Sequence record: PP925828.1
Direction: 5' to 3' (one strand)
Length of the DNA stretch: 64,000 nt
Source: Escherichia phage SpoonbillGilly
This document shows positions 61,247 through 62,080 of the stretch, piece by piece. Position 1 is the stretch's first letter. The number at the start of each line of letters is the position of its first letter. The translations under genes were made by a program, and so were the position numbers. The notes beneath the pieces are model-generated. The model made no database searches. It was not told the origin of the DNA and saw only the letters and a program-made list of their open reading frames with translations.

Positions 61247-61675
61247 ATGTTCAATAATATTTTCATGAAAGAGGTAAATCCTATGCTTCTCAACTTCTGG
61301 CGCTCTCTCCCTAATGGTATGTATAATGAAACCATCAATCTGCTCAAGATTTGGTGTGAGAATAACGATATCTTCTTATCCTTTAAAGGCCCGCTAGAGG
61401 AAGCTCCGTGTATTGGAGTTAGCGTGGATTTAGGGGAGGGAGTAGAAGAGATTGTAGACTGGAAAGAACTCGATGAAATGGGTCTGGTTTTTGCCTTGAA
61501 TCATAAGCTGTTTATGCCTGCAAATCACCGTCTTATTGTAAATTATCGCACTGGTGAAGCTCCTGCTTTCCAGGTAAATGAACGTGAGGGCTGGTCATAT
61601 TCGCCCGAGGAAGTAAATGAGGGGATTCAGAAACTTCGTCGTTTCGGGTATATGATCCCAGGTTTAACTGCTTAA
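61247..61675 (+). CDS. hypothetical protein, tandem paralogue A
   Basis: 142 aa; C-terminal half aligns with next gene. Confidence 0.55.
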   Translation: MFNNIFMKEVNPMLLNFWRSLPNGMYNETINLLKIWCENNDIFLSFKGPLEEAPCIGVSVDLGEGVEEIVDWKELDEMGLVFALNHKLFMPANHRLIVNYRTGEAPAFQVNEREGWSYSPEEVNEGIQKLRRFGYMIPGLTA

Positions 61676-61684
61676 GGAGGCAGA

Positions 61685-62080
61685 ATGGAACAAGTATTTT
61701 GGCGTCAGATAGATCCTAGTTTGGTAGAGCGTGCTGAGGGGCTCCTTGCACGTTGGTTGGGGGTTGACAAGGTTAGTGTAACATTTCCGTTTACTTCTGT
61801 AACAGACCCTAGTGTAGGTGTCTTTGTGGACGAAGATGAAGATGATGGTTGGGAAGCTGACTGGAATGAATTGTCCAGCATGGGCTTGATTGTTGCCCTC
61901 AACTTCTCTATATTCCATCCACGTGGCTTAGCCATTACACGTGACCCCGAAACTGGTGAATCCCCTTATCTTTTGCAAGTAGAAGATGATATTTGGGAGT
62001 ACACCGAAGATATTCTCGAAGAAGCTAAAGGTCAATTAAATCGCATTGGGATCTATGTCCCTGGCCTAAATGATGATTGA
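61685..62080 (+). CDS. hypothetical protein, tandem paralogue B
   Basis: 131 aa; GGAGG RBS. Confidence 0.55.
   Translation: MEQVFWRQIDPSLVERAEGLLARWLGVDKVSVTFPFTSVTDPSVGVFVDEDEDDGWEADWNELSSMGLIVALNFSIFHPRGLAITRDPETGESPYLLQVEDDIWEYTEDILEEAKGQLNRIGIYVPGLNDD

Follow-up and report, generated by a model that had tools for sequence, protein, structure and literature searches.

Why should a T5-like phage carry, end to end, two small genes that resemble each other, and what might each of them do? The question is raised by positions 61247-62080 of the window, by which we mean the whole 64,000-nucleotide (nt) stretch analysed here from Escherichia phage SpoonbillGilly (PP925828.1), a T5-like siphophage (Epseptimavirus). 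An earlier note, made from the sequence alone, had pointed there to two adjacent open reading frames (ORFs) with a clearly alignable C-terminal half, and had proposed a local duplication followed by divergence. We call the two genes A and B. The duplication itself is essentially certain. The fuller answer that we favour, at a probability of roughly 0.3, is that A and B are paralogues of the DUF7415 family, that B is the ancestral-like and A the non-canonical copy, and that the family serves as a nucleotide- or NAD-binding or accessory module.

61247..61675, + strand: gene A, ORF of 142 amino acids (aa), DUF7415, orthologue of T5.106, the derived paralogue; isoelectric point (pI) 4.74, net charge -8
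61676..61684, + strand: spacer between A and B, 9 nt after the TAA stop of A, read from the sequence
61685..62080, + strand: gene B, ORF of 131 aa, DUF7415, orthologue of T5.107, the ancestral-like paralogue; pI 4.05, net charge -20

Two adjoining paralogues of two lobes each

A and B adjoin, share strand and reading frame and have 9 nt between them, and this spacer holds a Shine-Dalgarno sequence for B (AAGGAGG) that overlaps the stop codon of A. By BLASTP, residues 17-140 of A align on residues 5-128 of B without a single gap, with 39 identities in 124 positions (31%; 68.6 bits, E=1e-20). The Smith-Waterman score of the pair is 169, against 29.2 +/- 5.0 for 2000 shuffles of B (z=27.7), none of which reached it; the comparison with shuffled controls that the earlier note had named as its check thus came out far on the side of homology. 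The C-terminal halves singled out there are indeed the better conserved (z=23.7), but the similarity is not limited to them, since a significant alignment is obtained for the N-terminal halves too (z=8.1, 0/2000 shuffles), which share FWR...LL..W...F...P..GV.VD. The motif quoted in the note (DW.EL..MGL..ALN, TGE.P, W.Y and L.R.G...PGL) is present in both proteins, except that its GY is peculiar to A, and B has GI instead.

Both proteins belong to one catalogued family. Pfam DUF7415 (PF24187), a model of only 53 positions with a curated gathering threshold of 27 bits, matches A at 125.5 bits (E=9e-37) and B at 98.2 bits (E=3e-28); PHROG 2502 is matched by A over profile positions 2-134 of 134 (E=7e-60) and by B over positions 4-134 of 134 (E=2e-58); NCBIfam has no model for either. 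Within the 64-kb window the family profile finds A and B only. Both proteins end in a G..(I/V)PGL tail that the single-domain relatives described below do not have. Adjacent, on one strand, in frame, 9 nt apart, significantly homologous over their full length, assigned to the same Pfam and PHROG families and alike in a derived architecture of two lobes with a PGL tail, A and B are tandem paralogues, and a local tandem duplication followed by divergence, as first proposed, is the simplest reading of the pair. It is practically out of the question that the similarity reflects chance or composition, or that one of the ORFs is not a gene: we found no point in support of this, and against it stand the E value and z score given above, the purifying selection on both genes, the high-confidence fold predicted for each, and their conservation in more than 500 genomes.

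The folds were predicted with AlphaFold2, with a predicted local distance difference test (pLDDT) value of 88 and a predicted template modelling score (pTM) of 0.82 for A, and 91.9 and 0.85, respectively, for B. In both models the elements follow the same order, namely beta-alpha-beta-beta, then beta-alpha(alpha)-beta-beta, then a C-terminal helix. Foldseek against BFVD returned only DUF7415 proteins, among them the B orthologue of phage mar003J3, which superposes on the model of A with TM scores of 0.85/0.92 at 1.8 A. In the PDB, neither a sequence match to any chain nor a fold match to the models of A and B was found, and this includes the solved anti-defence sponges and inhibitors (Tad1, Tad2, Acb2, Acr), with which A and B share no sequence or fold similarity.

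The two lobes raise the question of a still older event. The N-terminal lobes lie as follows.

61289..61441, + strand: N-terminal lobe of A, aa 15-65; Pfam DUF7415 73.3 bits
61691..61837, + strand: N-terminal lobe of B, aa 3-51; Pfam DUF7415 44.4 bits

When the four halves were scanned singly against Pfam DUF7415, all of them scored above the threshold (73.3, 56.6, 44.4 and 57.9 bits), so that the locus would consist of two genes of two domains each, and the beta-alpha-beta-beta order recurs in both lobes of both models. A profile built from the single-domain relatives gives the N-terminal lobes about 0 bits; hhalign of lobe against lobe keeps the register, but the match is weak (P=0.008, probability 5%), and pairwise Smith-Waterman comparison of lobe with lobe is not significant. 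An older internal duplication of the core domain within each protein is therefore plausible but unproven. Separately, a 22-nt direct repeat was noticed inside B (61833-61854 and 61977-61998; 82% identity, 144 nt apart) that encodes EDEDDGWE and VEDDIWE at the lobe ends; its register is the one expected for an internal duplication, yet the sequence is acidic and of low complexity, and the repeat may be due to chance.

An old and unequal pair

The copy number in related phages, which the earlier note had proposed to look at, places the duplication far back. Many Epseptimavirus genomes, Stitch and 118970_sal2 among them, show 98% identity over 60700-62400, a region that has matches in 524 phage records; with A as query, tblastn finds 1064 places in 548 phage records, i.e., about two per genome. 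In phage T5 itself the orthologues, T5.106 (142 aa) and T5.107 (130 aa), bear the annotation 'hypothetical'. Both genes stand in the same order in all 28 T5-like loci taken from IMG/VR, with the 9-nt spacer in 27 of them and 10 nt in the remaining one (L029). Between A and B no extended DNA repeat is left; the sole trace is a 15-nt in-register match over the TGE(A/S)P codons. The ratio of nonsynonymous to synonymous substitution rates (dN/dS; pairwise Nei-Gojobori, 29 genomes) is 0.08-0.10 for A and 0.13-0.16 for B, and hence both genes are under purifying selection.

Outside these genomes, Klebsiella phage Sugarland, of another genus of the Demerecviridae, carries an A-type gene (gp118) followed by a B-type gene (gp117) in the same order. 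In a neighbour-joining (NJ) tree of the two-lobed family members, a clade of A-type proteins has 96% bootstrap support and comprises A of the window, T5.106, Sugarland gp118 and three representatives from metagenomes; B, T5.107, Sugarland gp117 and gp086 of Pectobacterium phage DU_PP_V fall in the remaining, poorly resolved part. Since Sugarlandvirus already possesses both an A-type and a B-type copy, the duplication is ancient and predates the split of Markadamsvirinae and Sugarlandvirus. At the syntenic position, DU_PP_V (Mccorquodalevirinae) and Serratia phage Slocum have a single two-lobed copy, which may represent either the state before the duplication or a later loss.

These single copies are also where the account of an in-place duplication meets its difficulties. 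The alternative is that the second copy was gained by horizontal transfer from another phage. Two points tell in its favour and against duplication in place: the deep nodes of the NJ tree have only 4-40% support, and the copy of DU_PP_V lies on the B side, with P0049, P0051 and P0052, to which the copy of Slocum is closest among the relatives found, lying on the A side. Single-copy genomes of different types would require either reciprocal loss or transfer, and because the deep nodes are so poorly supported, transfer keeps a small share of the probability. We nevertheless consider it decidedly unlikely, because the two copies have in common the two-lobed architecture and the C-terminal tail, because full-length two-lobed relatives in the annotated phage collection were found only in Demerecviridae genomes (some 20 two-lobed representatives being metagenomic), and because Markadamsvirinae and Sugarlandvirus agree in the adjacency, strand, frame and order of the two genes.

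The wider family gives a measure by which the two products of this duplication can be compared. An exhaustive profile search of 1.84 billion representatives yielded 161 matches at E<=1e-3, of which about 20 are full-length two-lobed proteins and more than 100 match only the C-terminal core (profile positions ~58-110), the latter either as separate proteins of 60-110 aa or as domains in fusion with other segments. DUF7415 was assigned to 133 of 135 representatives. A few very long matches in multiple stretches (Ig-repeat adhesins and a tandem-repeat protein) were discarded as repeat artefacts with a short W.Y.P..L.EG-like motif. A scan of bacterial genomes gave six loci, all of them prophage-like. 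The single-domain consensus reads IDWN..SELGLI.RIN.EILHPLGLA..R.PETG.S.G.LV.DDG.WEY, in which N, G and S are invariant in a sample of 35 sequences. Aligned with hmmalign, 114 single-domain relatives define a family signature of 13 positions that are at least 90% conserved, S..GL....N....HP.GLA.......G.S.......D....Y, and it falls in the following parts of B and A.

61856..62002, + strand: conserved DUF7415 core of B, aa 58-106: ADWNELSSMGLIVALNFSIFHPRGLAITRDPETGESPYLLQVEDDIWEY
61448..61600, + strand: homologous core of A, aa 68-118

All 13 conserved positions are kept in B (S64, G67, L68, N73, H78, P79, G81, L82, A83, G91, S93, D101 and Y106) and six of the 13 in A, where the replacements are S to D76, H to M90, G to N93, L to H94, A to R95, S to A105 and D to R113. 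These substitutions are common to the A-type orthologues, save that position 105 is S in several of them, T5.106 included. Scored by a hidden Markov model (HMM) of the single-domain family, B reaches 84.6 bits, A 33.9 bits and Sugarland gp117 55 bits, and Sugarland gp118 is missed. The core motif is also kept in DU_PP_V gp086 and in the 'intermediate' two-lobed proteins P0049, P0051 and P0052. The divergence has therefore been strongly asymmetric, with B ancestral-like and A derived. As judged by dN/dS, A is at least as constrained as B, so that A is probably not decaying and would have been maintained for another role.

It must be said that A and B are ordinary, already catalogued members of a known family, near-identical to genes in hundreds of deposited genomes, and that the duplication as an event is of little importance, the pair being a fixed and long-known feature of T5-like genomes. 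Our searches of the literature on DUF7415, PF24187, PHROG 2502, the T5.105-107 locus tags and the T5 protein accessions returned nothing relevant. What is added here is modest: how old and how asymmetric the duplication is, how copy number varies across the Demerecviridae, the lack of a solved structural relative, and the recurrent neighbourhoods described below. More broadly, DUF7415 is a compact and strongly conserved phage domain spread over T5-like, T4-like and P2-like phages, with a confident predicted fold without a solved relative, and in the T5 pair an ancestral-like copy stands beside a degenerate one, a natural contrast that could guide mutagenesis of the domain.

Position in the operon and possible roles

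What the two proteins might do has to be approached, for the most part, through the company they keep. The genes stand last in a row of small ORFs, Sir2, two small ORFs, a HAD phosphatase-like gene, A, B and a terminator, whose main elements are listed here.

58825..58849, + strand: terminator after nrdD, where the transcription unit from Sir2 to DUF7415 has its upstream boundary; in T5 a terminator and a promoter are annotated here as well
59127-59209, + strand: weak promoter-like sites after the nrdD terminator
59574..60449, + strand: Sir2-family protein, 291 aa, with Pfam and PHROG matches; upstream operon member
60705..61244, + strand: HAD-family phosphatase-like protein (HAD_SAK_2), 179 aa, Pfam E=1.5e-19; its stop lies 2 nt before the start of A
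62104..62132, + strand: intrinsic terminator, 9-bp stem ACCGAGTCA/TGGCTCGGT, then TTTCTCTG; 24 nt after B

T5 and Stitch have the same annotated layout of promoters and terminators, and a terminator after the DUF7415 gene or genes is annotated in T5, Stitch, Sugarland and Slocum alike. From this layout and annotation, A and B are most probably co-transcribed as the last two cistrons of an early operon. Sir2 and DUF7415 are linked throughout the Demerecviridae genomes that were examined (those of Markadamsvirinae, Sugarlandvirus, DU_PP_V and Slocum), and in Slocum the DUF7415 gene directly abuts Sir2.

Outside the Demerecviridae the neighbours are different ones. In Jiaodavirus a single-domain DUF7415 gene lies between nrdD and nrdG (Klebsiella phage ValerieMcCarty05, 3980-4213 of locus L034); in Pseudotevenvirus and Slopekvirus it follows two genes after the NUDIX hydrolase NudE (RB43, 3989-4246 of L035); and in a prophage-like part of a Bacteroidales metagenome-assembled genome (5001-5225 of L039) it stands between NUDIX/DUF1937 and a cytidylyltransferase-like gene, in the order NUDIX-DUF1937-DUF7415-x-nucleotidyltransferase. 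In P2-like phages and prophages it comes directly after the replication gene A, and in some phages it is found among hypothetical genes only. The rare fusions of DUF7415 are to a MazG-type dATP/dGTP pyrophosphohydrolase (2 cases), ASCH/DUF3850 (2 cases), Cox, PGDYG, DUF551 and a ClpX-type zinc finger. A role around nucleotides or NAD is favoured because NUDIX, MazG, ribonucleotide reductase, Sir2, HAD and nucleotidyltransferase genes recur as neighbours or fusion partners, a recurrence judged by inspection of the loci.

The family is also uniformly acidic, with a median pI of 4.84 for the core, 4.2-4.95 for the two-lobed members and 4.2-5.0 for the family as a whole, and because of this acidity we disfavour DNA binding and have set aside a DNA-binding or replication-accessory role. 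The same acidity feeds our main rival explanation, a possible if doubtful one, according to which A and B are inhibitors for host takeover or anti-defence, i.e., acidic decoys that bind and inhibit a protein of the host (a defence effector, for example, or one that binds nucleic acids), duplicated in an arms race to meet two targets or variants. Apart from the acidity of the whole family and the net charge of -20 over the 131 aa of B, it is in keeping with this explanation that the genes are small and early, look accessory and occur in patches over unrelated phages (T5-like, T4-like, P2-like and a Pseudomonas phage), that P2-like phages carry DUF7415 in the accessory slot after gene A, and that the single domain is fused to assorted small phage domains (Cox, DUF551, PGDYG, ASCH). 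Tandem paralogues are, moreover, common among counter-defence genes in general. However, purifying selection is strong (dN/dS ~0.1), with no sign of diversification in either gene; the solved anti-defence proteins of the PDB gave no match in sequence or fold; and the core motif, with its invariant N, G and S and its near-invariant HP.GLA, is kept across very distant phages, which better suits a fixed ligand or catalytic site than the surface of a mimic. That the motif is conserved too well for a mimic is among our reasons for favouring a binding module.

A fixed site could also belong to a catalyst. The ancestral core might be a small enzyme with a Ser/His/Asp/Asn/Arg active site, perhaps built across a dimer interface, with B as the catalytic subunit and A as a pseudo-enzyme serving as scaffold. 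Such a site would be in keeping with the near-invariant polar residues S64, N73, H78, R86, S93 and D101 of B, which are retained in the 114 single-domain relatives; A has lost S, H, S and D, as is typical of pseudo-enzyme paralogues; and nucleotide hydrolases occur among the fusions and neighbours. On the other hand, some 50 residues would make a very small enzyme core, and no known catalytic fold was matched, so that we regard this as unlikely.

Returning to the binding or accessory module, we picture its history as follows. In an ancestor of the T5-like phages, a DUF7415 gene of two lobes was duplicated in tandem, long ago, and gave rise to A and B. Both are real and presumably expressed genes, B having its own Shine-Dalgarno sequence, and their products share one predicted acidic alpha/beta fold, beta-alpha-beta-beta twice over plus a C-terminal helix. 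Because B keeps the conserved core signature of the family, it probably carries the ancestral activity through the conserved polar and glycine patch S..GL....N....HP.GLA..R....G.S.......D..W.Y. A would have been maintained in a different role, the likeliest being that of a non-canonical partner of B in a hetero-oligomer, or one of changed specificity. The ancestral activity itself would be that of a small binding or accessory module for a nucleotide- or NAD-type ligand, or for an enzyme of that metabolism, rather than for DNA.

A more specific version, which is a long shot, holds that DUF7415, with its new fold, binds an NAD- or ADP-ribose-derived or other nucleotide, and that an A/B heteromer, with B as binder and A as degenerate scaffold, acts with the co-transcribed Sir2 and HAD phosphatase, e.g., by buffering or sequestering a metabolite or an immune signal. 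The idea of a glycyl-radical 'spare part' (GrcA-like), suggested by the nrdD neighbourhood, was dropped, since the RVxG(Y/F) signature is absent by eye.

Some labels in GenBank would lead elsewhere. Orthologues of A are at times called 'exonuclease' or 'Phage exonuclease (ACLAME 70)', those of B 'tail tube protein', and a T4-like single-domain homologue 'MazG-like family protein'. There is no match to a nuclease family or fold for the first; the second has no family or fold match either, and the place of the gene is in the early operon, with Sir2/HAD on one side and the replication genes on the other; the third is unsupported by family or fold searches. In the same operon, T5.105 and PHROG 18062, the orthologue and the family of the HAD_SAK_2 protein, are labelled 'Sir2 (NAD-dependent deacetylase)', a name that seems to have been transferred from the genuine Sir2 gene, which lies two ORFs upstream.

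Several further observations concern the surroundings. A small Trp-rich ORF at ~60403-60585 (+ strand; ...WPDGSWCYRFE...SDDF...EWKEF...) overlaps the end of Sir2 and resembles Sugarland gp119, which also stands directly after Sir2; a small, conserved partner of the phage Sir2 may be encoded here. After B, an intergenic stretch of 616 nt without an ORF (62081-62696) leads to the gene of the origin-binding helicase, which starts with GTG at 62697. Within it, a near-consensus sigma-70 promoter can be seen by eye at ~62163-62200 (TTGCAG, 17 nt, TATAAT), and T5 has a promoter annotated at the same place. An Rfam scan of 60500-64000 gave no match. Far away, at 28961-43225 (- strand), 27 tRNA genes are clustered in a manner typical of T5-like phages, with three tRNA-Met(CAT) calls among them.

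Comparison with known systems

The small, early-expressed and oligomer-prone phage proteins Tad1, Tad2/DUF2829 and Acb2 bind nucleotide-derived molecules. The likeness of A and B to these sponge proteins is one of functional analogy only, DUF7415 lying outside their families with no match in sequence or fold. The closest known counterparts are the orthologues at the same genomic position, 98-100% identical for both A and B in Epseptimavirus, and 72-77% identical for A and ~70-80% for B in Tequintavirus (e.g., T5.106/T5.107). With Pfam DUF7415 and PHROG 2502, T5.106 and T5.107 included, A and B form the same family, with no differing feature.

At a greater distance stand the single-domain DUF7415 proteins of T4-like, P2-like and other phages (70-110 aa; PHROG 3954, 1812 and 33705), which share the core motif that is complete in B. 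They are without the N-terminal lobe, the C-terminal helix and the PGL tail, whereas the T5-like proteins are two-lobed, and A is without half of the motif. Finally, in the ASCH(DUF3850)-DUF7415 fusion of P2-like phages (Yersinia phage vB_YpM_50 gp02), the C-terminal 65 residues correspond to the DUF7415 core, and an ASCH/PUA-like N-terminal partner takes the place of the T5-type N-terminal lobe, in a gene that is present as a single copy downstream of the replication gene A.
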